Virus record (IMG/VR): IMGVR_UViG_3300025381_000028
Location: 1-43,167 of that record
DNA: 43,167 nt
DNA from: a virus
Taxonomy: Duplodnaviria > Caudoviricetes
Direction: 5' to 3' (one strand)
Of the stretch, positions 1-39,761 are shown in pieces. Numbering within the stretch: the first letter of the stretch is position 1; each line of letters begins with the position of its first letter. A program made the translations under genes and the position numbers. Below the pieces are notes generated by a model. The model was not told the DNA's origin and did not search any database. It was given only the letters and a program-made list of their open reading frames with translations.

Positions 1-418
1 GGTTCTTCGTGAGTGTATTGAACTTCAGCTTAAGAAGTCTCAAGATTATCAAAATCCCAATTCAAATGTAGTTCAAGCAATGCATTATCGTCGTGGTGTT
101 GATACCATTCATGATATTATGCATGGTAAGATGCTTCGTGCTCAATCGCTAATTGAAGCTAATGGCATTACTAACTTTGAATCTCTTGAAGATACCTATA
201 AGGATCTTATCAATTATGCCAGCTTTGCTGTATCATATCTCCGTGGTAAGATGGAAGGTCAAGATCCAAATCGGGATATGTATAATCGTAAAATAATGAA
301 GTTTACTCAAGATCCTTTTACTGTGAATGAACATGCAAATGGTCAACTATCAACTGGTGGTGCTACTATTAAAGGAATGGGTTTTTATGTAGAAAATGGT
401 GGAACGATCCGCGGATGA
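1..418 (+). CDS. Nucleotide-modification-associated domain protein (Nmad1/DUF1599-like), 5' truncated
   Basis: Frame is open from nt 2 (VLRECIELQLKKSQDYQNP...); KxxDY and EDTYKDLINYA motifs typical of MazG-like helical Nmad1 proteins; overlaps start of the hydroxymethylase gene. Confidence 0.65.
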   Translation, partial: VLRECIELQLKKSQDYQNPNSNVVQAMHYRRGVDTIHDIMHGKMLRAQSLIEANGITNFESLEDTYKDLINYASFAVSYLRGKMEGQDPNRDMYNRKIMKFTQDPFTVNEHANGQLSTGGATIKGMGFYVENGGTIRG

Positions 419-1125
419 TGCATTCAACAGTTGAAGATATTCGTAATTATTTCAAGGATGCTCTTGCTCTAGAAGAATTTGTGATTGATAAGACTGGTGT
501 AAAAACCATTGAGCTTATCAATGCAAGCTTTATTGCAGATGAAGAATCTATCTTCGGTGAACCTAATCATGACTATATTCGTCGTGAAATTGATTGGTAT
601 CTCAGCAAGTCCCTGAATGTAAATGATATTCCCGGTAAGGTTCCAGAAATCTGGAAGCAAGTTGCGGATAATAAGGGTAATATCAATTCCAATTATGGCT
701 GGTGTATCTTCTCACCTGAAAATGGTTTTATGAGCTATCATAATATCTTTGCTCTTGAAGCATTTAAAGATATTAATAGTGATTGTCAATATAATCGTGT
801 TCGTGATGAACTTATTGCAAATCCTAATTCTCGTCGTGCTGTAATGATTTATACTCGACCAGAAATGTGGTTGGATTATAATCGCAATGGTCGTTCAGAT
901 TTTATGTGCACTAATACTGTTCAATATCTGATCCGTGATAATCAACTTCATTCTATTGTTCAAATGCGAAGCAATGATGTTGTCTTCGGTTATCGCAATG
1001 ATTATGCATGGCAAAAGTTTGTTCTTGATAGTCTTGCTGCTGAATTACATATGCATCCCGGAAATATCTATTGGAATGTTGGATCTCTTCATGTATATGA
1101 AAGACACTTTGGAATGGTAGTATGA
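415..1125 (+). CDS. gp42: dCMP hydroxymethylase (T4 gp42 type)
   Basis: DKTGVKTIE, INSNYGW, DFMCTNTVQYLIR, MRSNDVVFGYRNDYAWQ, WNVGSLHVY match T4 gp42; Asp at the position that is Asn in thymidylate synthases indicates dCMP specificity. Confidence 0.93.
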   Translation: MMHSTVEDIRNYFKDALALEEFVIDKTGVKTIELINASFIADEESIFGEPNHDYIRREIDWYLSKSLNVNDIPGKVPEIWKQVADNKGNINSNYGWCIFSPENGFMSYHNIFALEAFKDINSDCQYNRVRDELIANPNSRRAVMIYTRPEMWLDYNRNGRSDFMCTNTVQYLIRDNQLHSIVQMRSNDVVFGYRNDYAWQKFVLDSLAAELHMHPGNIYWNVGSLHVYERHFGMVV

Positions 1126-1562
1126 CTGATTGGAATAAACGATTTCTAGAACTTGCAAAGCATATTTCAACTTGGAGCAAAGACCCAAGTCGACAGATTG
1201 GTGCTGTAATTGTCGGTGGTGATCGTCAGATTCTTTCAGTAGGATATAATGGATTTCCTCGAGGAATTAAAGATGATTCTAGACTTCTTGATAGAGAAAC
1301 CAAGTATACTCTGATTGTTCATGCTGAGATGAATGCTATATACAATGCAACATATAATGGAATCAAGCTTGAAGGCTCGACATTGTATGTAACTGGATTG
1401 CCTGTATGCTCTGATTGTGCTAAGGGTGTAATCCAAGTAGGTATTAAAAAGGTAGTTCTTCCAAAGGATATTGATCTTTCTAAGAATTCTCTTTGGACAG
1501 AATCTTGGTATAAATCTTGTAAAATGTTTACTGATGCTGGTGTTGAGTGGGAATTTGCATGA
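1122..1562 (+). CDS. cd: dCMP deaminase
   Basis: SKDPSRQIGAVIV, GYNGFP, HAEMNA and PVCSDC zinc motifs. Confidence 0.95.
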   Translation: MTDWNKRFLELAKHISTWSKDPSRQIGAVIVGGDRQILSVGYNGFPRGIKDDSRLLDRETKYTLIVHAEMNAIYNATYNGIKLEGSTLYVTGLPVCSDCAKGVIQVGIKKVVLPKDIDLSKNSLWTESWYKSCKMFTDAGVEWEFA

Positions 1563-2797
1563 AGATTGCGGTTATCTTAGGACGTGGTATTGAGGGTTGC
1601 GGTGTAACTCGTAATGCTATTGAGTTTGTTAGACATTATCCAAATTCAAAGGTTTTTGCTATCAATGATAAGAAGTGGCCTCGCCACAATTCTTTGAAGC
1701 TTGATGCTAAGCTTTTTAATTGTGCAACTCATGCTGAGATGCTGGCTATTGCTAATGAAATTAATAAGGACTTTGAAGCTGTAGTTGTATACTCTGTTCC
1801 TTCTCTTAAGCACAGTGATGAATGTGTTAATAATTTTGTTGAGCTTCTAACTCTTATTAAGCATCCTAAGTCAATGATCCAAGTCGATCATAACAATGCA
1901 TCTATTATTCGTAATGCACGTCTTGCAGATGTTTGTAATGCAATGGATCTTATTATGACTCATTCACTTCATGGTGCATTTGCTGGTTGGTGTGAAAAGA
2001 ATAATGTATCAACTCCTTTGACTACCATGGGTGTTGGTTTTGATTATGAAGCACATAAGACAAAGTGGTGGAAGCCTATTGAACAGCAACAATCCAATAT
2101 GGTTAAGTGGATTGGTCGTTGTGCTATGTGGAAAGGTCCCGTTGAAATTGTTAAGTTGCATAATGATTACCTAAGGCAGCATAACTTTATTACGACTCTG
2201 GAAGGTCTCGAAGCTTCTGTGCAAAGTCTTCTTGTGACCCATGAAGACGGTTTTAAGAAATCTATCAAGCGGGATGTACAAGAATATATTCGTGGTAGAA
2301 ATCGTGCACTTGCTAGAAATCATTATAATAAAGAAGTTCCAGGTTCTGCTCCATATCTTTATCCTGACTTCAAGAATGAAGATTGTATGGATAGACTTTC
2401 TCGTTCCGCATTTGGTTCAGATCTTTATAACCTGAAGCCTCAGTATTATGGTAATAATATCGAGTATTGTCATGCTGAAGTTATTGCATGTGGTACTGTT
2501 CCTATTTTTCATAAGCATTTTGGTGATCACATTATTCATCCTAAGACTGGTAATCCAGCAACTCAAGATGATACCGGTGTAATTTGGTATAATGCTCAAA
2601 ATCCAGAAGAAACTGCTAACCAAATTCTTAACGTATATAATAATATGACTCTTCGAGATGAGATGCGAAATAAGGCTTTTGAATACTGGAAAGGTCATTC
2701 AGATTCAAGCATAGTCTTTACGGATATAATCAAGAAAGTTACAACTGCTAAGAAGCATGAAAAAATTAGTCTTAATCTAGAAAGGTTCTTTTCTTGA
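1559..2797 (+). CDS. agt: DNA alpha-glucosyltransferase-like (GT-B)
   Basis: GRGIEGCGVT, WIGRxxxWKG, EGLE, EYxHxExxACGTVPIF match T4 alpha-glucosyltransferase; start moved to ATG 1559 (ATGA overlap with cd stop). Confidence 0.88.
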   Translation: MKIAVILGRGIEGCGVTRNAIEFVRHYPNSKVFAINDKKWPRHNSLKLDAKLFNCATHAEMLAIANEINKDFEAVVVYSVPSLKHSDECVNNFVELLTLIKHPKSMIQVDHNNASIIRNARLADVCNAMDLIMTHSLHGAFAGWCEKNNVSTPLTTMGVGFDYEAHKTKWWKPIEQQQSNMVKWIGRCAMWKGPVEIVKLHNDYLRQHNFITTLEGLEASVQSLLVTHEDGFKKSIKRDVQEYIRGRNRALARNHYNKEVPGSAPYLYPDFKNEDCMDRLSRSAFGSDLYNLKPQYYGNNIEYCHAEVIACGTVPIFHKHFGDHIIHPKTGNPATQDDTGVIWYNAQNPEETANQILNVYNNMTLRDEMRNKAFEYWKGHSDSSIVFTDIIKKVTTAKKHEKISLNLERFFS

Positions 2798-4020
2798 ATT
2801 ATACACACGCATCAATTATTCCACTTATCGGTGGTGTTGCCCTAGCCCAGCATGAAGATAGCGGCCAAGCTCCTGAGTATATGATGACATATGAAGGCTT
2901 TCAAGCTAATGAAAGTCATATTCTTAATCATTATAGAAATGCTTATAATGTTGAGATGCCTTATTATTATCTCGATGCATTAGAACAGCCTAAGCTTAAA
3001 AGCGTAGATGTAGTTAATAGTGTGTGTCCTTGTGCTGGACTTTCACAGTTATCCGCAGGATTTGGTGATCACAACCAAAACAATCAATGGATGATTAAGA
3101 CTGCAACTTATGTTTTAGGTACTCTTAAGCCTCGTGTATTCTGGGGAGAAAATGCTCCAGGATTTGCTGGAAAGATTGGTCAAAATGTAAGAAATACCCT
3201 ATATAAGATTGGTAGGGATAATGGTTATACTATGTCGGTTTATAGAACTCGGTCTCTATTACATGGTACACCTCAAGTTCGCGAAAGATCTTTCTATTTC
3301 TTTTGGAAAGAAACTGATAAGACACCTTTACTTGGTTATTTTAATAGACCATGGACTAAGATTGAAGATCTTATTCGCAATGTAAAAGCAAATTCTCAAA
3401 TGGAACCTATTAATCATAGAATTCCATCAGAATCAGATCCATATTATCGCTTTATCTTAGAAGAAGTTTTTGGCGGAATCTCACATAGAGAATTCTCAAA
3501 CGAAAAGTTAGGATTTCTTCGAGTTAGAAGTAATGATGTATTCTCGTTTATTGAATCTCAAGGTTATAGTTATAATCGGGTTGCTGATTGGCTAAAGTCT
3601 AAAGGTTATGAGCGTGAATATGAAAAGTGCATGTATAAGTATGATAAGCTTCAGTCTGGTAAAAATATCATGCGCCGCGGAACAATTATTCCTAAGGATT
3701 ACATTGGTGCTTTCGTAGGACATTATCCTACATGTTTAACCCATCCAGATGAAGATAGATATATCACATATCGTGAAGCCATGTCAATTATGGGTATGCC
3801 AGAAAACTTTGAATTACTAAATCCAAAGAAAAGCTATAATCATATTTGTCAAAGCGTTCCAGTAAAGACTGCTTTAGATATGTGCTCAGAAATCTCAAAA
3901 TATCTCAATGGAGAACTTGAGATGATTAACTCTACATACACTTATCAGTACAATCATAGTCAAACACACGAGATTGAATCTGATGAACCCACACTCACAT
4001 TAGAAAACTTTTTTAATTAA
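2794..4020 (+). CDS. C5-cytosine DNA methyltransferase-fold protein with atypical cofactor motifs
   Basis: Motif IV CPCAGLS, VI GENAPG, VIII PQVRER, IX RYITYREAMSIMGMPENF; motif I reads IPLIGG and motif X reads ICQSVP; TTG start overlapping agt stop. Confidence 0.85.
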   Translation: MNYTHASIIPLIGGVALAQHEDSGQAPEYMMTYEGFQANESHILNHYRNAYNVEMPYYYLDALEQPKLKSVDVVNSVCPCAGLSQLSAGFGDHNQNNQWMIKTATYVLGTLKPRVFWGENAPGFAGKIGQNVRNTLYKIGRDNGYTMSVYRTRSLLHGTPQVRERSFYFFWKETDKTPLLGYFNRPWTKIEDLIRNVKANSQMEPINHRIPSESDPYYRFILEEVFGGISHREFSNEKLGFLRVRSNDVFSFIESQGYSYNRVADWLKSKGYEREYEKCMYKYDKLQSGKNIMRRGTIIPKDYIGAFVGHYPTCLTHPDEDRYITYREAMSIMGMPENFELLNPKKSYNHICQSVPVKTALDMCSEISKYLNGELEMINSTYTYQYNHSQTHEIESDEPTLTLENFFN

Positions 4021-4025
4021 GGAAC

Positions 4026-4334
4026 GTGATGGATCCGAACATTCAGTATAAATATAATGAGCCTAAGACTCTTAAAGACATTCAAGATTATATTGAATCT
4101 ACTTATGCTCAGCATTATTCTCAAAATAAATTTCAAGCAACAGAGTTTATTATTGACAGTGGATATGGTGATGGGTTTTGCTTAGGGAATATGCAAAAAT
4201 ACACTCAGCGCTATGGAAAAAAAGGCAATCCAGAGGATTGGCGTAAAGACATTATGAAAGTCATGCACTATGCAATAATGATGTTGTATGTGCATGATCT
4301 AAATTATAACAAGGAAAATATTAATGGAAATTGA
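4026..4334 (+). CDS. DUF3310-like protein (family includes T7 gp1.7 nucleotide kinase)
   Basis: HY...GFCLGNMQKYxxRYGKK...DIMKVMHYA pattern. Confidence 0.7.
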   Translation: MMDPNIQYKYNEPKTLKDIQDYIESTYAQHYSQNKFQATEFIIDSGYGDGFCLGNMQKYTQRYGKKGNPEDWRKDIMKVMHYAIMMLYVHDLNYNKENINGN

Positions 4335-4737
4335 TGATCCAATTGCATTAGTTCTGAATGTAACACCTATAAATTTTGTTATGTCAGATGATGTAATAGA
4401 TCCAAATGAAAATAATTTTAATATTCCATGGAATAAAAATACTGTTGGTTTACAAGAAGCCTGGAATAAAGGATTAACTACAACTCAACAAGTAAGAAAA
4501 AATATTTCCATTGGAACAAAAATAGCTATGAATAAAATTGATCCTTCTGTTAAAGCTGAATATTATAAAAATAGAGATTCATGCCAAAAACGTAGATGGA
4601 TGAATAAAAATGGAAAGCATGTAAGAATTCCATTTCATCAAATAAATGAATATATTAAAAATGGTTGGAGTGAAGGCAGATTAATGTCTAAAGATTCCAA
4701 TGGTAAATTTAGCGGAGTTATAAATTATGGAAATTAA
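4324..4737 (+). CDS. Homing-endonuclease-derived DNA-binding protein (NUMOD3-like), no catalytic domain seen
   Basis: PWNK/AWNKG repeats, RKNISIG, RWMNKNG...GWSEGR C-terminal module; very AT-rich; no GIY-YIG or HNH motif. Confidence 0.6.
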   Translation: MEIDDPIALVLNVTPINFVMSDDVIDPNENNFNIPWNKNTVGLQEAWNKGLTTTQQVRKNISIGTKIAMNKIDPSVKAEYYKNRDSCQKRRWMNKNGKHVRIPFHQINEYIKNGWSEGRLMSKDSNGKFSGVINYGN

Positions 4738-5575
4738 AGTTGAAATGGACGAGCTTAGAAAGAAAAAGCTCTTTGTTTCCGTACCTATGTATGGTGGCCA
4801 ATGTGCCGGTATGTTCTGTAGATCGACAAACGATCTTTCTGCAGCAGCAGTACATTATGGAATTGAAGTAAAGTTTTATTATCTGTTTAATGAATCTCTA
4901 ATCACAAGAGCAAGAAATTATTGTACAGATGAATTCCTTCGTTCAGACTGTACACACATGATGTTCATTGACTCCGATATTGGATTCAATGCTCAAGACG
5001 TTATTGCAATGTTGGCTCTAATGTCGACAGAAGATAATGAATATGATATTCTGTGCGCACCTTATCCTAAGAAGTGTATTGCTTGGGAAAAGATCAAGAT
5101 GGCAGTGGATCGTGGTATTGCTGATACTGATGCTAATGCTCTTGAAAATTATGTTGGTGACTATGTATTCAACCCAGTCGGCAACAAGAGCGAGATTCCT
5201 ATTGGTGAACCAGTAGAAGTTCTTGAATCTGGTACTGGATTCATGATGATCAAGCGTGAAACTCTTGAAGCATATGCAGCAGCATATCCTGAGTATTCAT
5301 ACAAGCCAGATCACGTTCGTACTGCACACTTTGATGGCAGCCGCGAAATTACTGCATTCTTTGATTGTATCATTGATCCAGAAACTAAGAGATATCTGTC
5401 AGAAGATTATATGTTCTGTCAACAAGCACGTAAGGCCAACCTTAAGGTTTGGCTCTGCCCATGGATTCGACTGCAACACGTAGGATCCTATATTTTTGGT
5501 GGCTCTCTTGCTGATCTTGCAGCTATTGGAGCTTCTGCAACCGTCGATCCAACAAAGCTTGGTAAAAAGAAGTAA
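4727..5575 (+). CDS. GT-A fold (GT2-like) glycosyltransferase
   Basis: VSVPMYGG, ESLITRARN, FIDSDI (DxD), GTGFMMIKR, YLSEDYMFC, HVG. Confidence 0.85.
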   Translation: MEIKVEMDELRKKKLFVSVPMYGGQCAGMFCRSTNDLSAAAVHYGIEVKFYYLFNESLITRARNYCTDEFLRSDCTHMMFIDSDIGFNAQDVIAMLALMSTEDNEYDILCAPYPKKCIAWEKIKMAVDRGIADTDANALENYVGDYVFNPVGNKSEIPIGEPVEVLESGTGFMMIKRETLEAYAAAYPEYSYKPDHVRTAHFDGSREITAFFDCIIDPETKRYLSEDYMFCQQARKANLKVWLCPWIRLQHVGSYIFGGSLADLAAIGASATVDPTKLGKKK

Positions 5576-5588
5576 TTAGGAGAAATAA

Positions 5589-6029
5589 ATGCCTACACTA
5601 TTAGACCTCATTAATGCAGACCTGCAAAAGGCTTGGAATGCAGTAACCCATGAAACTCAAAAGGATGTAGTTCTTGTTGAAGCTGTTGCTTCAATTCTTT
5701 GGGATGACTTCAAGATCATTCTGACTGGAATGCTTCCTTCTCAGTATGCTATTCTTAAGAATCTTGTTATTCGGATTCTTCCAAGTGTAGCTACTGGGGA
5801 TATTGCAGCTATTGAAGTTCTCGTTCTTCAAGCTGCTGAAGTTGAAGAACTTGGTTGGATCAAGAATCTGGCTTCACATGTTCTTACAGCCGCAATTGCT
5901 CTGATTCTTGCTGCTCTGAATAATCAGCCTCTGGTTCCTATTCAGCCTCCAGTTCAGACTAATCCAAATACTGCCCCAGTAGTTCCAGTTACAGGTGGTA
6001 GCACAAATCCAGGTACATTTCTTAGCTAA
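5589..6029 (+). CDS. Hypothetical protein, hydrophobic helix followed by Pro/Thr-rich tail
   Basis: Strong SD (AGGAG), phage-like codon usage, followed by terminator. Confidence 0.75.
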   Translation: MPTLLDLINADLQKAWNAVTHETQKDVVLVEAVASILWDDFKIILTGMLPSQYAILKNLVIRILPSVATGDIAAIEVLVLQAAEVEELGWIKNLASHVLTAAIALILAALNNQPLVPIQPPVQTNPNTAPVVPVTGGSTNPGTFLS

Positions 6030-6144: not shown

Positions 6145-6789
6145 ATGAAGCTTAGTGAACGTACTCTACAAGTTCTGAAGAACTTTTCTACTATCAATCC
6201 AACAATTTTCATTAGAGCTGGTAATGAAATTAGAACTATTGCTCCAACAAAGTCTATGTTTGCTCAAGCAACTGTTCCTGAATCCTTTCCTAAGGATTTT
6301 GCAATTTATGAACTCTCAAGGTTTCTAGGAGTTATTTCTCTTTTCACAGATCCAGATTTCGATTTTCAAGACAAGTATGTGACCGTTAGTTCTGGTAAGC
6401 AACGTGTTAATTACACTTATGCAAATCCAGAAATGGTTGACTCGCCTTCAAAGAAGACCAATAACTTCCCAGATCCAGTTGCAACATTTACTCTGACATC
6501 TGAAAGTCTCTCAGCTATATCTAAGGCTGGTGCAATTCTTCAAATGCCTGATGTTGCAATCACTGGTGCTGATGGAGTTATTACTATCTCAGCTATCAAC
6601 TCGAAGGAATCTACTTCAGATACTTTCAAGCTTGAAGTTGGTGAAACTAATGAAGATTTTCAAGTTATTCTTAAGCCTGAAAACTTGAAGCTGATCCCAG
6701 CAGAATATCAAGTATCTATTACAACTGCTGGTATTTGTTGGTTTGAAACTAGCGATCTGACTTATTGGATTGCTTGCCTTAGTAAGTAA
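6145..6789 (+). CDS. gp45: Sliding clamp
   Basis: MKLSERTLQVLKNFSTIN N-terminus, FAIYELSRFL; GGAG SD before ATG 6145; synteny with 44/62. Confidence 0.95.
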   Translation: MKLSERTLQVLKNFSTINPTIFIRAGNEIRTIAPTKSMFAQATVPESFPKDFAIYELSRFLGVISLFTDPDFDFQDKYVTVSSGKQRVNYTYANPEMVDSPSKKTNNFPDPVATFTLTSESLSAISKAGAILQMPDVAITGADGVITISAINSKESTSDTFKLEVGETNEDFQVILKPENLKLIPAEYQVSITTAGICWFETSDLTYWIACLSK

Positions 6790-8725: not shown

Positions 8726-9340
8726 ATGAAGACTTTTATTATCGCTGCAGCTATTGCAGTTCTTAGTGCTGTATCTGCTCAAGCAGAAGGTACTGTAACC
8801 GGATCAGCTCTGTTTTCCGGTGGAAATACTCGGCATGGTTTTGATCAGTATGGTCTGCGTTATAACAATGCAAATCAAGTTCTTGACTACGGTGTTGCTC
8901 TTGAAAGCCGTCAGAGCGAAAAGAATGGCCCAGATGCAACTTTTTTCTCGGGTCGTGTTGGTACCTCTCTTCCTGCATGGCGCGGATTTACCACTAAGGT
9001 AAACGTCGAAGCTGGTGAACAAGTTGCTTCAGGTTATCATGCCGGATTCTATGGCTATGGTGTTAAGACCTCGCATCAACTTGCACCTGCAGTATTCAAT
9101 GTTTATGGTGTAAACGTTGGTCCTTTTGACTTCCGTGCTGGTCTTCAGCATCGTGAAGGTTGGAATGCTGCTTCTCTGAATGAAACTCAAGTTTCAGGTG
9201 GCGTTGCTGCTGCTCTGCCAGGTTCTACTGAAGCTGCTCTGAGCCTCGTTAATACCCGTCTGCGTGGTTATCAATTTTTTGATCGTGACCACAAGACAAA
9301 TTCTACCGGTCTTATGGTAACTGTTGCTCATAAGTTCTAA
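8726..9340 (+). CDS. Predicted outer-membrane beta-barrel protein
   Basis: Sec signal peptide ending AQA, amphipathic Gly/aromatic-rich strands, terminal Phe (VTVAHKF). Confidence 0.75.
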   Translation: MKTFIIAAAIAVLSAVSAQAEGTVTGSALFSGGNTRHGFDQYGLRYNNANQVLDYGVALESRQSEKNGPDATFFSGRVGTSLPAWRGFTTKVNVEAGEQVASGYHAGFYGYGVKTSHQLAPAVFNVYGVNVGPFDFRAGLQHREGWNAASLNETQVSGGVAAALPGSTEAALSLVNTRLRGYQFFDRDHKTNSTGLMVTVAHKF

Positions 9341-10603: not shown

Positions 10604-13105
10604 ATGGCTGCATATTACACTGATGTTAGTATTCGTGGCAATTACATCTACTATCGTGGTAGGGATAATGGTCGGCGAGTTCAAAAGCGCGTTGAATATA
10701 AACCTTATATGTTTATTCCTTCACGAAATAAAGATTCACAATATAGATCTCTCTTTGGTCAAAGCCTTGATAAGCTTGAACTTGATAGCATTCGTGGTGC
10801 CAGAGATTTTGTAAAGAAATATGAAGATGTTGATGGCTTTGAAGTCTTTGGTCTTGACCGTTACATCTATACCTATCTCAATGATAGATTTCCCAATGAA
10901 ATTAATTATGATCCTAATGAAATTAATACTGTAGCAATCGACATCGAAGTTGATTCTTCAGATGGATTTCCAAATATTGAACGTGCAGATAGAGAAATTA
11001 CAGCAATTTCTATGAAGCGCCGTAATACGGTTATGGCATTTGGTTGTGGTGATTATGAACCTGCTGAAGGCGTGCTGTATGTAAAATGTAAAGATGAAAA
11101 GTCTCTTCTTTATAAGTTTCTTGATCTTTGGAATCAGTGGGATGTTGATATTGTAACTGGTTGGCACATTGAACTCTTTGATATTCCATATATTGTTAAC
11201 CGTGTCAAAGTAGTACTCGGTGAAGAAGCTATCAAGAAGCTATCACCATGGGAAATCATTGAAGAAGACACTATTTTCCAAAACAACAAAGAACAAAAGA
11301 CTTATAAGATCAAAGGTGTATGTATCCTTGACTATGAACAGTTGTATCGTAAGTTTACTTACACAAACCAAGAATCTTATAAACTTGACCATATTGCTTT
11401 TGTTGAACTTGGTGAAAGAAAGCTGGATTATAGCGAATATGAAGGTCTACATGATCTTTATCAACGTAACTTCCAAAAGTTCATGGAGTATAACGTACAC
11501 GATGTGCTGCTGATTGACCGTCTTGAAAAAAAGATGGGTCTGATCAGTCTTGCCTTGACTGTTGCTTATGATGCTAAGATCAATTACTCTGATGTGTTTA
11601 CTTCTGTGCGTCTGTGGGATGTTATTATTCATAATCATCTGTTCAAGAAAAATATTATTATTTCTAAGAATAAGGTTACAAAGAAGTATGATCAGTTTGC
11701 TGGTGCATATGTAAAAGATCCTATTGTTGGAATGCATAAGCATACTGCATCATTTGACGTGGAAAGTCTGTATCCTTCTCTTATTGTTCAGTATAATATT
11801 TCTCCCGAAACATTCAGAGGCCGTATTCATAATATGCCTTCTGTTGATAGTCTTGTGCGTGGAGACTTTGATAATACGACTATTCAGCAAAAGTGTATTG
11901 AAGAAAACGTAGCGATTACTGCAAATGGATGTCTTTGGGATAAGGACATCAAAGGTATTTTTCCAGAGCTTGTCGAAAAGATGATGAGTGAAAGAAAGAT
12001 GTATAAACGTATGATGCTTGATGCTCAAAAAGAATATCAAGAAAATCCATCAGTTGATCTTGAGAATAAAATCTCTAAGTATAATAATCTTCAAATGGCT
12101 CGAAAGATTCAGCTCAACTCTCTTTATGGTGCACTTGGAAATCAATACTTCAGGTGGTTCCAAATTGAATTTGCGGAAGCAATTACTCTTACAGGTCAGC
12201 TTGCAATCCGTTGGACTGAACGACATATCAATACATTCTTGAATAAGACTCTCAATACTACAAATATTGATCGTGTTATTGCAATTGATACTGACTCGGT
12301 TTATCTTAATCTAAATGATCTTGTCAAATCAATGGTCAAGAATTATACGACAGAAAAAGCTATTGATTTTATGGATAAAGCTTGCGGAACAGTTATTCAA
12401 GAAGTAATTAACAAAAGCTTTAATGATCTTGTACAATATACTAATGCTTATACTCCATTCCTGAAAATGAAGCGAGAAGCTTTGGCAGATAAGGGAATAT
12501 GGACTGCAAAGAAGAGGTATATACTTAATGTATACGACAATGAAGGCGTAAGATATAAAGAACCTAAGCTTAAGATGATGGGTATCGAAGCCGTCAAATC
12601 ATCAACACCTTCATCTTGTCGAGAAAAAATTAAAGACACACTTAAAATTATTATGAAAGGTACAGAAGAAGATGTCATCAAAACAATCGAAGAATTCAGA
12701 AGTGAGTTCAAAAAGCTCCCGTTCGAAGAAATCGCATTCCCCAGAGGATGTAACAATCTCACGGAATACAAGGACAAAGATCTCATATACAAAAAAGGAA
12801 CTCCTATCCATGTCCGCGGTGCATTGGTGTTTAACAATCTACTTCAATCAAAGCAACTCGAAAACAGAATCGAGCTTGTAAAAGAAGGCGAGAAGATTAA
12901 GTTCTGTTATCTTAAACTTCCAAACCCTCTTCGTGAGAATGTAATCTCGGTAGTAAATACTTTGCCGAGACAATTAGACCTTGACAAATATATTGACTAT
13001 GAGTTACAATTTACTAAAGCATATCTCGAACCAATTAAAAGTATACTTGATGTAATTGGATATTCTACCGAGAAGCGTGCTACACTTTCAGATTTTTTTG
13101 GATAA
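10604..13105 (+). CDS. gp43: Family B DNA polymerase
   Basis: DIE exonuclease I, SFDVESLYPS, KIQLNSLYG, DTDS, KKRY; C-terminal TLSDFFG. Confidence 0.98.
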   Translation: MAAYYTDVSIRGNYIYYRGRDNGRRVQKRVEYKPYMFIPSRNKDSQYRSLFGQSLDKLELDSIRGARDFVKKYEDVDGFEVFGLDRYIYTYLNDRFPNEINYDPNEINTVAIDIEVDSSDGFPNIERADREITAISMKRRNTVMAFGCGDYEPAEGVLYVKCKDEKSLLYKFLDLWNQWDVDIVTGWHIELFDIPYIVNRVKVVLGEEAIKKLSPWEIIEEDTIFQNNKEQKTYKIKGVCILDYEQLYRKFTYTNQESYKLDHIAFVELGERKLDYSEYEGLHDLYQRNFQKFMEYNVHDVLLIDRLEKKMGLISLALTVAYDAKINYSDVFTSVRLWDVIIHNHLFKKNIIISKNKVTKKYDQFAGAYVKDPIVGMHKHTASFDVESLYPSLIVQYNISPETFRGRIHNMPSVDSLVRGDFDNTTIQQKCIEENVAITANGCLWDKDIKGIFPELVEKMMSERKMYKRMMLDAQKEYQENPSVDLENKISKYNNLQMARKIQLNSLYGALGNQYFRWFQIEFAEAITLTGQLAIRWTERHINTFLNKTLNTTNIDRVIAIDTDSVYLNLNDLVKSMVKNYTTEKAIDFMDKACGTVIQEVINKSFNDLVQYTNAYTPFLKMKREALADKGIWTAKKRYILNVYDNEGVRYKEPKLKMMGIEAVKSSTPSSCREKIKDTLKIIMKGTEEDVIKTIEEFRSEFKKLPFEEIAFPRGCNNLTEYKDKDLIYKKGTPIHVRGALVFNNLLQSKQLENRIELVKEGEKIKFCYLKLPNPLRENVISVVNTLPRQLDLDKYIDYELQFTKAYLEPIKSILDVIGYSTEKRATLSDFFG

Positions 13106-18016: not shown

Positions 18017-19021
18017 ATGTATAAGTTTAAGAGTACTGAAGTAGAACTTGATTATGATGATGTTTTGATTTGTCCTAATTATAGGTCGCATATTAATTCT
18101 AGATCAGAAGTTAGTCTTGTAAAGAAGTTTACATTTAAGCATTCTGGTTTTTGTTATGAAACTGTTCCAATTATTGCTGCTAATATGAATGGTATTGGAA
18201 CAAAGCATATGGCTGAAGCAATGGCTTATCATACTTGTATGGTAGCTTATACTAAGACAGTTTCTCCAAATGCGTACTCTTACAATAATACTTTTTATAC
18301 TATTGGTGTCAATGAAGCTTTAACTGATATTCTTAATAAGACACCAAATTTTATCAATGTTGATATTGCAAATGGACATATGATTGCTCTTCTTAATAGA
18401 GTAAGAGAACTCCGTCAGCTATTTCCCATGTCAGTTATTATGGCTGGAAATGTTGTCAGCGGATATATGACCACTCAGCTTATTGATGCTGGAGCAGATA
18501 TTGTAAAGGTTGGTATTGGCCCTGGTTCAGTATGTACGACTCGTCTCAAGACTGGAGTCGGTCGACCACAACTTAGTGCTATTGCTGAATGTGCTGAAGC
18601 TGCTCAAAAGATGGGCGCTCATATTTGTGCTGATGGTGGATGCAAGAATCCCGGTGATGTCTCAAAGGCCCTTGCTGCTGGTGCTGACTTTGTAATGCTC
18701 GGTGGTATGCTTGCTGGTCATGAAGAAGGACTTGATGATCTTACTTCTGAAATGGTTTGGAATGCTAAAATCAAAGAATATGAAATTCATTTTTATGGAT
18801 CTTCTTCTAAACAAGCAATGGGCACTGTTGCAGAATATAGAACTGATGAAGGCAAGACAGTAAAGATTAAATATAGAGGTTCTGTAAAGAATACTATGCA
18901 AGATATTCTTGGCGGTGTTCGTTCAGCATGCTCTTATGTTGGTGCAAGTAATCTTGAAGAATTTAGGTATGCAACTGTTTTTGTAAGAGTAAATAATACA
19001 CATAATAGGGTTTTTGGTTAA
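18017..19021 (+). CDS. guaC: GMP reductase
   Basis: [66 protein letters not shown]; no CBS domains. Confidence 0.92.
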
Positions 19022-21550: not shown

Positions 21551-22131
21551 TGGAAGCATTTGAAGCTTATACACTATATCTAGCTCTAAAGCGACATTTC
21601 ACACCCAATAGTGGGTATGACTATTTCAAATATAATGGTAAAACTAATGCTTCTAAAAAAGCTTTAGAGACTAGAAAAGATAGATACTTCTTTCACAAAC
21701 TATCAAAGAAAGCCGATCCATTATATTTTTTGGTTGCAAACTTTATTGAATATGGACACAATATATGGATCGGCGATCTTGTCAATGATAGTAAATATGA
21801 TGACGCATATAATGATTGGTTGAAGAAAAAGGAATCAATATCCTATATTTTTTCACAAGAGTTATCTCAACTTGATGATGATTTAGATAAAAATCTAAAA
21901 ATTGAAGATGGACAATATCCACATCTCTTGACTTTATATTTGAGAAAAAAGATCTGTATAGAAACACTGATACTACTTAATTGCGTATTAACCTTTTTAC
22001 CGAAATGGCAGAAAGAAATTACTGATACCTCACTTTGGCCAGATATATATAATACAGTATTAAAATACTCAAGATTTGTAGATTATGACTTTTTCAAAAT
22101 TAAAAACATTATAAAGGATAGATTTTTATGA
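21550..22131 (+). CDS. gp59: Helicase loader
   Basis: YLALKRHFT..YDYFKYNGK, RKDRYFFHKL, IETLILL. Confidence 0.92.
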   Translation: MEAFEAYTLYLALKRHFTPNSGYDYFKYNGKTNASKKALETRKDRYFFHKLSKKADPLYFLVANFIEYGHNIWIGDLVNDSKYDDAYNDWLKKKESISYIFSQELSQLDDDLDKNLKIEDGQYPHLLTLYLRKKICIETLILLNCVLTFLPKWQKEITDTSLWPDIYNTVLKYSRFVDYDFFKIKNIIKDRFL

Positions 22132-22880
22132 GTTGGATAGATTATGCAAATGAACACGGATTACTCTTTGAGAGTCTAATTTCTTTAAACAAGTATAAGA
22201 CAGTAGTTGAAGTTGGTACAGCATATGCCGCAACTACAAAGTTTTTATGTGCTGGTGCTCAAAAGACTGGTGGTCACGTACACTGTTTTGATCTTTGGGC
22301 TACTCACGGTCTTAATGACCAATTCCATGCATTTTCTTCAAAGGAAGAATGTCAAAGATATTTGACTTCTGAAGAGTTTGATAATTTTACTCTGACTCAG
22401 ATGGATTCTACTTCTCAAGAATTTAGAAATGCGATAGAAGCACTTCCTACAATTGATTTTGCTTTTATTGATGGTTGCCATTCTTATGATGGCGTTCTTA
22501 ATGACTTTAGTGTAATTTATCCAAAGCTATCTGAAGTAGGTACAATTGTATTCCATGATACACTTAGAATTGATGGTTGTCGGGAATTTATGATTGATCT
22601 TAGAACTAAGTTCTTTGATGGTACCTTTGATGTGATAGATATTCCGCATGGTAATGGTGATCGTAGATGTGGCATTTCAATTCTTGCTAAGCGTACATTC
22701 CCAATTGTAGATATGCCATGTGATGAAATCTGTAATCTTGAAAATAGATTAGAAGAAATTTATCAAAAGGAACAAGATTGGTTTAGTAAAGAAGTTGAAA
22801 CCTATCATACAAATATTGTTCCAGTTATTGCACCTAAGCCACCACGGCCAAAGAAATATCTCACATTTAATACTTTATAA
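22128..22880 (+). CDS. Class I SAM-dependent methyltransferase (Methyltransf_24-like)
   Basis: VEVGTAYA, CFDLW, FIDGCHSYDGVLNDF, IVFHD. Confidence 0.85.
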   Translation: MSWIDYANEHGLLFESLISLNKYKTVVEVGTAYAATTKFLCAGAQKTGGHVHCFDLWATHGLNDQFHAFSSKEECQRYLTSEEFDNFTLTQMDSTSQEFRNAIEALPTIDFAFIDGCHSYDGVLNDFSVIYPKLSEVGTIVFHDTLRIDGCREFMIDLRTKFFDGTFDVIDIPHGNGDRRCGISILAKRTFPIVDMPCDEICNLENRLEEIYQKEQDWFSKEVETYHTNIVPVIAPKPPRPKKYLTFNTL

Positions 22881-35811: not shown

Positions 35812-36351
35812 TTATACACTTTGTAAATATTTCATGACATTTTCAGGAGAAGATTCACCATAAGGATCTTCTTCATAATTATGTTGCTTATTTGGTTCAA
35901 TGAACCACTTCTCAATCTTGCCATTGTTGATCACAGCAGCATAGCGCCAAGACCTCATACCAAAGCCAAGGTTGTCCTTATCAACTAGCATATTCATGCC
36001 TTCCGTAAAGTGACCACTGCCATCTGGGATCATCTTTACACGTTCAATATTTTGTGACTTAGCCCATGCATTCATAACAAAAGCATCATTTACTGACACA
36101 CAATAGATTTCATCAATGCCAAACTTGCCAAAATCAAAATGCATACGCTCATAACCAGGTAGTTGATAAGCAGAGCAAGTGGGTGTGAAAGCTCCAGGCA
36201 ATGCGAATAGGATAACTCGCTTGCCACCGAAGTAATCAAAGCTGGTCTTGTCTTCCCAACGGTATGGGTTCGGACCATCAATGCTTTCATCACGTACTCG
36301 AGTCTTAAATGTAACTGAAGGAACTACTGATGGGGGATTTTGATAAAGCAT
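35812..36351 (-). CDS. Peroxiredoxin (Prx5-like)
   Basis: LPGAFTPTCS, SVNDAFVMNAW, IPDGSG, GFGMRSWRYA. Confidence 0.95.
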   Translation of the reverse strand: MLYQNPPSVVPSVTFKTRVRDESIDGPNPYRWEDKTSFDYFGGKRVILFALPGAFTPTCSAYQLPGYERMHFDFGKFGIDEIYCVSVNDAFVMNAWAKSQNIERVKMIPDGSGHFTEGMNMLVDKDNLGFGMRSWRYAAVINNGKIEKWFIEPNKQHNYEEDPYGESSPENVMKYLQSV

Positions 36352-39140: not shown

Positions 39141-39761
39141 TTAGTATTTTCCAGATACCAATACAATTTGACAGATGTGTTCAAGACGCTCGATATGTTC
39201 AAAGGCCCGCCAAGGACTAGTGTCGATAGATACCACACCATGACCCTTGATACCTACGATATCATATGCTATATTGCCGTGTTCATCTAGTTCTAGATTC
39301 TCATGACAATAGTCTGCGAGTTCTTGACTAATAGGTGGAACATCAGGTACATTAGGAGCAACGTGTGTATATCGACTAAGTTCTGGAAAATCCTTGGCCA
39401 GATCGCCTAGTTCAATACCTCTATGCATAGCAGCTACGCAATAAGTAGGATGAAAATGCACAACCACTCGAACATCATCTGCATGCTGTCCCATATTCTT
39501 CTGTAAACCAAAGTGAAGAGGAATCTCACCACTCGGTGTCAGATTAGAACTAATATCAGTATACTTTTCTTCTTCCCATGAAGATCCACGAATACCAATC
39601 TTCTTGAATTGGTCAGGTTGCAATGTTTGCTTACGGACACCGCTTGGAGTAATATAGAAATGATCTCGATCATGATGACGGATACTTACATTACCATCTC
39701 GGCTAGTAATCCAGTTCCGACGGTAAGCCTCGATCATAGTATCGCAAATTGTTTCTAGCAC
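39141..39761 (-). CDS. Class II aldolase/adducin-family protein
   Basis: DGNVS, ITPSG, PSGEIPLH, VVHFHP, GHGV. Confidence 0.9.
   Translation of the reverse strand: MLETICDTMIEAYRRNWITSRDGNVSIRHHDRDHFYITPSGVRKQTLQPDQFKKIGIRGSSWEEEKYTDISSNLTPSGEIPLHFGLQKNMGQHADDVRVVVHFHPTYCVAAMHRGIELGDLAKDFPELSRYTHVAPNVPDVPPISQELADYCHENLELDEHGNIAYDIVGIKGHGVVSIDTSPWRAFEHIERLEHICQIVLVSGKY

Follow-up and report, generated by a model that had tools for sequence, protein, structure and literature searches.

A methyltransferase-fold enzyme with a rebuilt cofactor site accompanies predicted hydroxymethylcytosine synthesis in T4-like phages and is a candidate editor of unglucosylated hydroxymethylcytosine

Glucosylated 5-hydroxymethylcytosine (hmC), as made by the T-even phages, is textbook knowledge, and in T4 the residues that the alpha-glucosyltransferase (AGT) leaves free are believed to be completed by the beta-glucosyltransferase (beta-GT) (PMC13216743, in part). 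In vitro, ordinary cytosine C5-methyltransferases (C5-MTases) can attach formaldehyde to cytosine and join thiols to hmC (PMC7176277, in part). Also, bioRxiv 2023.12.21.572611 mentions, in bulk, gene clusters in which ThyS is found with glycosyltransferases, methyltransferases and clamp genes. In the present study we analysed a stretch of 43,167 nucleotides of the IMG/VR virus record IMGVR_UViG_3300025381_000028 (the window), which begins with an operon encoding a gp42-type synthase, an AGT and an enzyme with the fold of C5-MTases. The novelty lies in the last of these, a widespread partner endowed with methylase machinery in genomes from which plain cytosine should be missing. As judged from its sequence, it keeps the cytosine-attacking machinery together with an equally conserved, rebuilt cofactor site. 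We tentatively favour the idea, which we hold to be somewhat short of probable, that this enzyme rides the sliding clamp and finishes, without S-adenosylmethionine (SAM), the hmC missed by the sugar transferase. No description of the rebuilt family was found in the literature searched, supplements and subscription papers being outside its scope.

The gene content of the window (43 kb) marks it as part of the genome of an uncultured T4-like phage, with gp45, gp44, gp62, regA, gp43, uvsX, gp41, gp59, gp32 and baseplate genes. Positions 1-5575 hold eight open reading frames (ORFs), all on the plus strand; the first four junctions of the operon are 4-base start/stop overlaps and the next distances are +5, -11 and -11. 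The features of this locus are the following:

L004:2787-3203 (just upstream of base 1 of the window, preceded by peptide deformylase and gp46/gp47): PRA-PH/MazG-type pyrophosphatase gene
2..418, plus strand: Nmad1/DUF1599 protein (PF07659, E 3.8e-5, 24.4 bits, just below the cut-off of 25), its 5' end outside the window
415..1125, plus strand: dCMP hydroxymethylase, orthologue of T4 gp42 (PDB 1b49, E 1.7e-81)
1122..1562, plus strand: dCMP deaminase (PF00383, E 1.5e-20)
1559..2797, plus strand: DNA alpha-glucosyltransferase, AGT (PF11440, E 1.8e-30)
2794..4020, plus strand: C5-cytosine MTase-fold enzyme (PF00145, E 1.1e-18), TTG start
4026..4334, plus strand: DUF3310 protein of 102 aa (PF11753, E 7.4e-9)
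4324..4737, plus strand: AT-rich orphan ORF of 137 aa (GC 0.27), no known family
4727..5575, plus strand: GT-A-fold glycosyltransferase-like protein (phrog_1574, E 2.4e-64; Atlas clusters glycosyltransferase-2-like and Anp1)
6145..6789, plus strand: gp45 sliding clamp (PF09116, E 3.8e-14; phrog_223)
10604..13105, plus strand: gp43 DNA polymerase (phrog_262)

A first-pass annotation had named seven tightly coupled genes in positions 1-5575, and profile matches and junction distances bear this out; the ORF between DUF3310 and the GT-A gene had been omitted. The unit is coupled as proposed, and its cassette begins upstream of the window: in L004, a near-identical locus with 99-100% protein identity, the order is gp47, gp46, peptide deformylase, PRA-PH pyrophosphatase and a full Nmad1 ORF of 157 aa. 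We merged 178 loci around MTase-fold homologues into 70 groups at 90% identity, after excluding three loci without a complete MTase-fold ORF. Since the order recurs in these 70 groups of relatives, it is not a product of chance. Two other samples were used, a distant clade about 30% identical to the window MTase-fold protein (82 loci, 40 groups) and a reverse sample selected by gp42 (80 loci, 33 groups).

The AlphaFold model of the MTase-fold enzyme (pLDDT 91.5) matches M.HhaI (1fjx) over its length with Z 26.0 and a root-mean-square deviation (rmsd) of 3.0 over 300 residues, and C5-MTase motifs IV, VI and VIII are present. Among 134 members at 25-58% identity the catalytic set is nearly invariant (C80 99%, E119 100%, R163 and R165 100%), and so is a set of different residues on the cofactor side (P10 98%, L11 98%, F36 92%, N39 94%, Q353 99%), Q353 sitting at the position of HhaI Asn304. 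Canonical C5-MTases have FxGxG in motif I and a ribose-binding Glu in motif II. In the 134 members the motif I position reads (I/V)PL(I/V)GG (P10-L11-x-G-G in the window protein) and the motif II position is Ser/Thr, the FxGxG/acidic pattern being absent. The family comprises 1867 clusters at 90% identity and 382 representatives at 50% (E up to 1e-30), and matches 6 of 50,697 phage records (five S-TIM5-type phages and Pseudoalteromonas phage XG4).

Several readings of these features have to be weighed. The least probable is that the protein has no catalytic role, serving as a shield bound to DNA or persisting as a relic, and that the DNA has no modified cytosines other than glucosyl-hmC and free hmC. 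Its altered cofactor motifs and its dispensability in 10 of the 33 gp42-picked groups would suit an idle protein, but catalytic Cys, Glu and both Arg conserved at 99-100% across such divergent members, with new pocket residues equally conserved, argue for activity. Very unlikely as well is the transfer of another alkyl group from a SAM analogue, as performed by CmoX with carboxy-SAM. CmoX, also a phage enzyme of the C5-MTase fold, works with an altered cofactor (PMC12783734, in part) and is changed at the same HhaI Asn304 position; its structure 8yf3 matches our model with Z 23.1 and rmsd 3.8 over 289 residues. However, that position is Gln in 99% of the members and not Arg, CmoX keeps the adenosine-binding Phe and Glu (Glu47), and no CmoA-like gene was found among the 34 neighbour proteins scanned.

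A more serious contender, although we consider it doubtful, is a genuine C5 methylase that uses SAM through a diverged binding site and would back-fill 5-methylcytosine (5mC) on leaked cytosine, perhaps at purine-C (RC) or GC sites, yielding a mixed glucosyl-hmC/5mC genome. The entire M.HhaI fold and all the catalytic residues are retained, an aromatic residue at position 33 and Asp61 survive, and the change from Asn304 to Gln is mild. Against it, an invariant Pro-Leu takes the place of the glycine-rich motif and Ser/Thr that of the ribose-binding Glu. Most phage C5-MTases of Tet pathways prefer GpC (bioRxiv 2023.12.21.572611, in part), which would agree with methylation at such sites. A methylase acting together with Tet was discarded, as no Tet/JBP match was found in five carrier genomes. 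Biases in dinucleotide composition, which could betray modification at specific sites, showed no pattern common to the carriers.

The synthase is 56.7% identical to T4 gp42, has the ThyA fold with the catalytic Cys, contains the SDFMC and RSND motifs and bears Asp at ThyA positions 143, 169 and 177. In the ThyA family, Asp177 denotes preference for dCMP, an acidic residue at 143 together with Asp169 the dCMP hydroxymethylase and Asn169 the 5-hydroxy type (PMC13326640, in part), and by these rules the three Asp residues point to a dCMP substrate and a product other than the 5-hydroxy one. An RB69-type 5-hydroxy-dCMP synthase, leading to 5-hydroxycytosine (5hoC), was ruled out by Asp169, where Asn would be expected. 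From orthology and active-site residues it follows that the enzyme would make hydroxymethyl-dCMP (hm-dCMP). ThyX was found in three of five relatives, including both records that are at least 90% complete, each of which has a single ThyA-family gene, so the gp42-type synthase is free for modification. AGT in turn matches PF11440 over its full length (106.7 bits against a cut-off of 25) and aligns end to end with Tequatrovirus AGT (29% over 420 columns; 28-29% identity). In this sense, the proposal that gp42 and AGT lead to alpha-glucosyl-hmC is supported, and this is likely the main base, expected to replace cytosine. If plain cytosine is replaced through the action of gp42 and a dCTPase, little of it is left for a methylase to act on.

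The synthase and the MTase-fold gene travel together. Of the 70 close groups, 56 have gp42 on the locus, and in the remaining 14 the locus ends before the gene; Asp143 is present in 56/56 and Asp177 in the 55/55 that could be read, with Cys at 169 in one. In the distant clade a synthase lies within 10 kb in 17 of 40 groups, all 17 with Asp143 and Asp177. In the S-TIM5 clade a ThyA-family gene occurs in 9 of 11 records, with Asp177 in the eight read and Cys at 143, and AGT gave only weak partial matches in two of the 11. Every readable neighbouring gene of the thymidylate synthase family is thus of the dCMP type. The first-pass annotation had expected the additional genes to co-occur with gp42 and agt: this holds for the MTase-fold gene with gp42 (56/70), not for AGT specifically (22/70). 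Its idea that cytosine bears a further mark, or a mixture of marks, is plausible through the MTase-fold gene, while the other additional genes form no single pathway with AGT.

Between the deaminase and the MTase-fold gene there is a slot that holds a glycosyltransferase in each of the 56 groups where it is complete: AGT in 20, c15 in 21, c37 in 7, TAGT in 4 and others in 4. The c15 family is a GT-B enzyme without Pfam match, often accompanied by UDP-galactopyranose mutase, and c37, which we take to be beta-GT-like by resemblance, is often accompanied by inositol-phosphate synthase. The three main types co-occur in no group. On a quick tree of 66 MTase-fold proteins the slot content changes at least 16 times, and the window's protein clusters with members from c37 cassettes. 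Therefore AGT is the exchangeable part and the MTase-fold enzyme the constant neighbour, and AGT as its fixed partner was discarded on its presence in only 22 of 70 groups. The slots of L008, L009, L012, L017 and L031 contain inositol-phosphate synthase, a probable HAD phosphatase, a protein with the helical domain of 5-hmdU DNA kinase and the beta-GT-like enzyme; others contain galactopyranose mutase, TAGT together with UDP-glucose dehydrogenase, or a gene resembling UDG. The window represents a simple version, with AGT and no sugar-synthesis gene in its cassette.

The retention of the MTase-fold gene depends on the type of sugar transferase. In the reverse sample, 20 of the 33 groups have the gene, three are incomplete and 10 are without it; in these last, no match was found elsewhere in the record (two are at least 90% complete; the search had no positive control). 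Seven of the 10 belong to the c37 type, and in these the rest of the slot is complete. Considering the 24 groups intact through GT-A, the gene is kept in 14/14 AGT or c15 cassettes versus 3/10 c37 cassettes (Fisher p 3.5e-4, kinship not corrected). This dependence suggests leftover hmC as the substrate. It also speaks against SAM-dependent methylation, as the type of glycosyltransferase should not alter the amount of plain cytosine.

After the MTase-fold gene, DUF3310 and a DexA-like exonuclease are mutually exclusive (31 versus 30 groups, both in 0/70); a shared function was not adopted as explanation, for the alternation follows lineage. In L293, L294 and L298, of the distant clade and with AGT present, a second MTase-profile match adjoins the first. 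L373 (JBBACR010000001.1) and L374 (CAZMXB010000002.1) are the sole two genome-collection matches of that clade; both come from metagenome-assembled genomes and have the appearance of phage contigs placed there by binning.

A connection with replication is suggested by the C-termini. In the window the MTase-fold enzyme ends in LENFFN, AGT in LERFFS (within an extension that the aligned T-even AGT does not have) and gp43 in LSDFFG, peptides of the L-x-x-F-F type. By groups, this tail occurs in gp43 (11/12), the MTase-fold enzyme (61/69), AGT (11/22), c37 (11/12) and TAGT (4/4), and rarely or never in c15 (1/23) and GT-A (0/64), the background being 13 of 1151 ORFs. T4 alpha-GT co-purifies with gp45 (PMC13216743, in part). 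The gp45 clamp is therefore the presumed docking partner of the tails.

We propose the following sequence of events. As families and synteny suggest, dCTP is likely removed by the PRA-PH pyrophosphatase whose gene precedes the window, and another nucleotide pool is likely cleared by Nmad1. gp42 would make hm-dCMP, which DUF3310 or a host kinase would phosphorylate, and the deaminase likely feeds dTMP synthesis via the ThyX that near-complete relatives encode. AGT would glucosylate hmC with host UDP-glucose, as expected from its family. The MTase-fold enzyme, likely acting on the phage's own newly copied DNA, would flip free hmC and add Cys80 to C6. The hydroxymethyl group would then be either capped with a small nucleophile or released as formaldehyde, and no bare hmC would be left for modification-dependent nucleases. 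Release of formaldehyde is the reverse reaction of C5-MTases. With the same reserve as above, the family may thus have given up SAM and become a clamp-tethered editor of hmC, capping it with a non-sugar group to give a new base or stripping it to cytosine as a dehydroxymethylase.

A related possibility is that the enzyme hydroxymethylates at the DNA level, placing formaldehyde or a folate-borne one-carbon unit onto plain cytosine behind the fork and so supplying the sugar transferase. M.HhaI with formaldehyde makes hmC with about 90% efficiency (PMC7176277, in part), the family travels with hmC sugar transferases, and S-TIM5 has an AGT and no Tet/JBP match. Nevertheless, we regard this route as improbable: it is redundant with gp42 where dCTP is removed, it leaves the loss in beta-GT-like cassettes unexplained, and no donor has been identified.

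Different observations weigh against an editor of leftover hmC. No hydroxymethylase lies within 10 kb in 23 of the 40 groups of the distant clade, and in 17 whole records of this clade a dCMP-type enzyme was found in seven, canonical-type matches only in three, and none in seven, which are 11-26% complete. The MTase-fold enzyme is dispensable, being absent from 10 of 33 gp42 groups, and it coexists with c37 in 12 of the 70 close groups; the seven losses in c37 cassettes may be few events. T-even phages, which have AGT, have no MTase-fold gene, according to the search of phage records with its six matches. The cofactor pocket was judged from sequence motifs and not from coordinates, and the surviving aromatic residue at 33 (Y/F/W 93%) and Asp61 (72%) could hold an adenosine cofactor.

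Cyanophage S-TIM5 bears on both the editor and the methylase. All its cytosines after purines are reportedly methylated, which, given that the phage has a homologue of the enzyme, reads most simply as the work of a SAM-dependent methylase and adds to the points just listed. However, S-TIM5 also has an Asp177 synthase, ThyX and AGT, so the bisulfite pattern need not be simple 5mC; glucosylation at RC together with stripping elsewhere would fit it too. If true, stripping at unglucosylated sites would explain protection of purine-C only. The S-TIM5 synthase gp076 (L001:5775-6611) is annotated as thymidylate synthase and has Asp177 and Cys143, conserved across its clade; because of these residues and the separate ThyX of the phage, it likely acts on dCMP.

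Regarding the nucleotide-pool genes, Nmad1 had been proposed as the dCTPase, which now seems doubtful. In 27 of the 33 groups that have Nmad1 it is preceded by a PRA-PH gene, and in the cultured Serratia phage Muldoon (L457:13854-15071) Nmad1 lies directly upstream of gp42 in a genome that carries a gp56-type dCTPase besides. The PRA-PH product is hence the more likely dCTPase. Nmad1, for which the Atlas top clusters are DUF1599 at 0.93, alternates with the PF18909 dATP/dGTP diphosphohydrolase (33 versus 17 groups, both in 0/70); this alternation suggests a nucleotide hydrolase, likely a pyrophosphatase. The distant locus L370 has both. The single-sequence model of Nmad1 is helical with low pLDDT (56.8), and hhalign of Nmad1, DUF3310, PRA-PH, PF18909 and the glycosyltransferases matched no pair, even AGT versus the beta-GT-like enzyme, the profiles being shallow.

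DUF3310 had been suggested to stand in for the hm-dCMP kinase. It is 33% identical over 90 aa to the C-terminal half of T7 gp1.7, annotated as nucleotide kinase, with PF11753 in both. A gp1-type deoxynucleoside monophosphate (dNMP) kinase (PF21448) was found in 0 of 12 related records, two of them at least 90% complete. G002, which is 91% complete, has 220 ORFs, and the 143 of them covered included no member of a dNMP kinase family. The complete genome G001 is without DUF3310 and has small P-loop proteins instead. The DUF3310 subfamily occurs in 465 phage records, of which 449 are cyanophages and at most 38 of these could have a gp42 match, so it is not specific for hmC. The kinase role is therefore plausible in a general form, DUF3310 being a candidate general dNMP kinase.

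The GT-A gene had been taken as the source of a second sugar. Full-length copies contain RARN in 153/153, DxD in 147/153 and EDY in 153/153, and R..DxD..EDY/F motifs occur in DNA-acting phage GT-A enzymes and JGT (bioRxiv 2023.12.21.572611, in part), although this signature may not be specific for DNA acceptors. The GT-A gene lies upstream of that for the clamp, is found in 65 of the 70 groups and occupies the equivalent position in DLP_6, Cr30 and phiM12, none of which has gp42. A ThyA-family gene is missing from DLP_6, and the enzymes of Cr30 and phiM12 are of the canonical Asn177 type. DLP_6 fills the same slot with TAGT, a nucleotidyltransferase and Tet/JBP. Tet/JBP is also encoded by Cr30, along with an amino-acid:DNA transferase, and no Tet match was found in phiM12. 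The addition of a second sugar onto glucosyl-hmC or free hmC, compatible with the other readings, is supported by the coupling of GT-A to the operon and by its motifs, and the Tet/JBP oxygenases of DLP_6 and Cr30 make a hydroxymethyl acceptor possible in these phages. Against this, GT-A is unchanged across such different chemistries (gp42, TAGT with Tet, Tet with amino-acid:DNA transferase, canonical ThyA), it gave no match to the TAGT profile PF20691 at E 0.1 where neighbour TAGTs score E 1e-13 to 1e-16, and its groups show no tail, though most c15 enzymes are without it too. We find it unlikely that GT-A adds this sugar, and consider that it acts on DNA at all to be just as unlikely; rather, it is likely a separate core gene of the lineage, not tied to hmC. 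In the Stenotrophomonas phage DLP_6 (KU682439; L023:3496-7786) the DNA-modification cassette is unannotated and Tet/JBP is annotated as SNF2; DLP_6 and Caulobacter phage Cr30 are both cultured.

Concerning the other genes of the window, the orphan ORF at 4324-4737 had no match in Pfam, PHROG or NCBIfam, occurs only in near-identical loci and is missing in L006, a locus with 80% identity in the MTase-fold protein; it is likely a recent insertion, and its basic C-terminal stretch presumably resembles DNA-binding modules of homing endonucleases, without a match to them. A hydrophobic ORF of 146 aa with a Pro/Thr-rich tail (5589-6029), between GT-A and gp45, was found in the closest relatives only and belongs to no family. 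At 8726-9340, an ORF of 204 aa with apparent signal peptide and aromatic C-terminus is outer-membrane beta-barrel-like and has no PHROG match; G002 has a porin-like gene at L212:5561-6223. A class I SAM methyltransferase (22128-22880; PF13578, E 1.4e-18) is coupled between gp59 and gp32. Additionally, host-like genes encode a dehydrogenase (18017-19021; phrog_9582), a peroxiredoxin (35812-36351; phrog_2281) and a protein of the unknown-function family phrog_13212 (39141-39761).

An enzyme that naturally writes, caps or erases hmC, if true, would constitute new DNA chemistry and a new counter-defence step, and may provide a tool for hmC mapping. Two carriers, Pseudoalteromonas phage XG4 and cyanophage S-TIM5, are cultured.

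Comparison with described systems places the locus near several of them. With the T-even glucosyl-hmC system (gp56, gp42, gp1, cd, alpha-gt, beta-gt) it shares the gp42 orthologue, AGT and dCMP deaminase, with AGT downstream of gp46/47 in both. It differs in the single coupled operon, the upstream PRA-PH gene, ThyX in place of a second ThyA, the swappable sugar slot and the extra MTase-fold enzyme, and a gp1-type kinase was not found in near-complete relatives. The 5-hydroxycytosine glycosylation systems of RB69, DLP3 and RL38JI also combine a thymidylate synthase homologue with interchangeable sugar genes, but they have Asn169 where the window synthase has Asp169 (PMC13326640, in part). In T7 gp1.7 kinase the DUF3310 part is shared, the window ORF consisting only of that 102-aa part. 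Pathways of C5-MTase with 5mYOX/TET and glycosyltransferases share the clustering of the two enzymes and the GT-A motifs (PMC8256090 and bioRxiv 2023.12.21.572611, both in part); these act after replication, whereas here hmC is predicted to be made before it by gp42, and the five carrier genomes gave no Tet/JBP match.

As for the enzyme itself, M.HhaI and M.HaeIII (PF00145) share the entire fold, the catalytic Cys, Glu-Asn and Gln-x-Arg-x-Arg, but identity is about 15%, and the window enzyme has rebuilt motifs I, II and X, a polymerase-like tail and a genome predicted to be cytosine-poor. The DNA cytosine C5-carboxymethyltransferase CmoX of Synechococcus phage S-B43 (8YF3; PMC12783734, in part) shares the MTase fold and the change at the Asn304 position; at 16% identity, the window enzyme has Gln353 in place of Arg and VCPC in place of SPPC, so that neither CmoX hallmark is present, its adenosine-binding motifs are also changed, it is linked to dCMP-level synthases, and no CmoA/CmoY was recognised beside the gene. 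Closest are S-TIM5 gp080 (YP_007006143, annotated as DNA methylase; 31%) and the XG4 homologue (30%), of the same subfamily and with the same rebuilt motifs. S-TIM5 has AGT, an Asp177 synthase and ThyX, and differs by scattered genes, Cys143 and the absence of a T4-type tail. In XG4 (vB_Psh_XG4, PP712099; L002:100-7552), an unannotated cluster, which also gives a weak PRA-PH match, places a gp42-type synthase, a HAD phosphatase, a nucleotidyltransferase-kinase and two glycosyltransferases directly before the rebuilt MTase.

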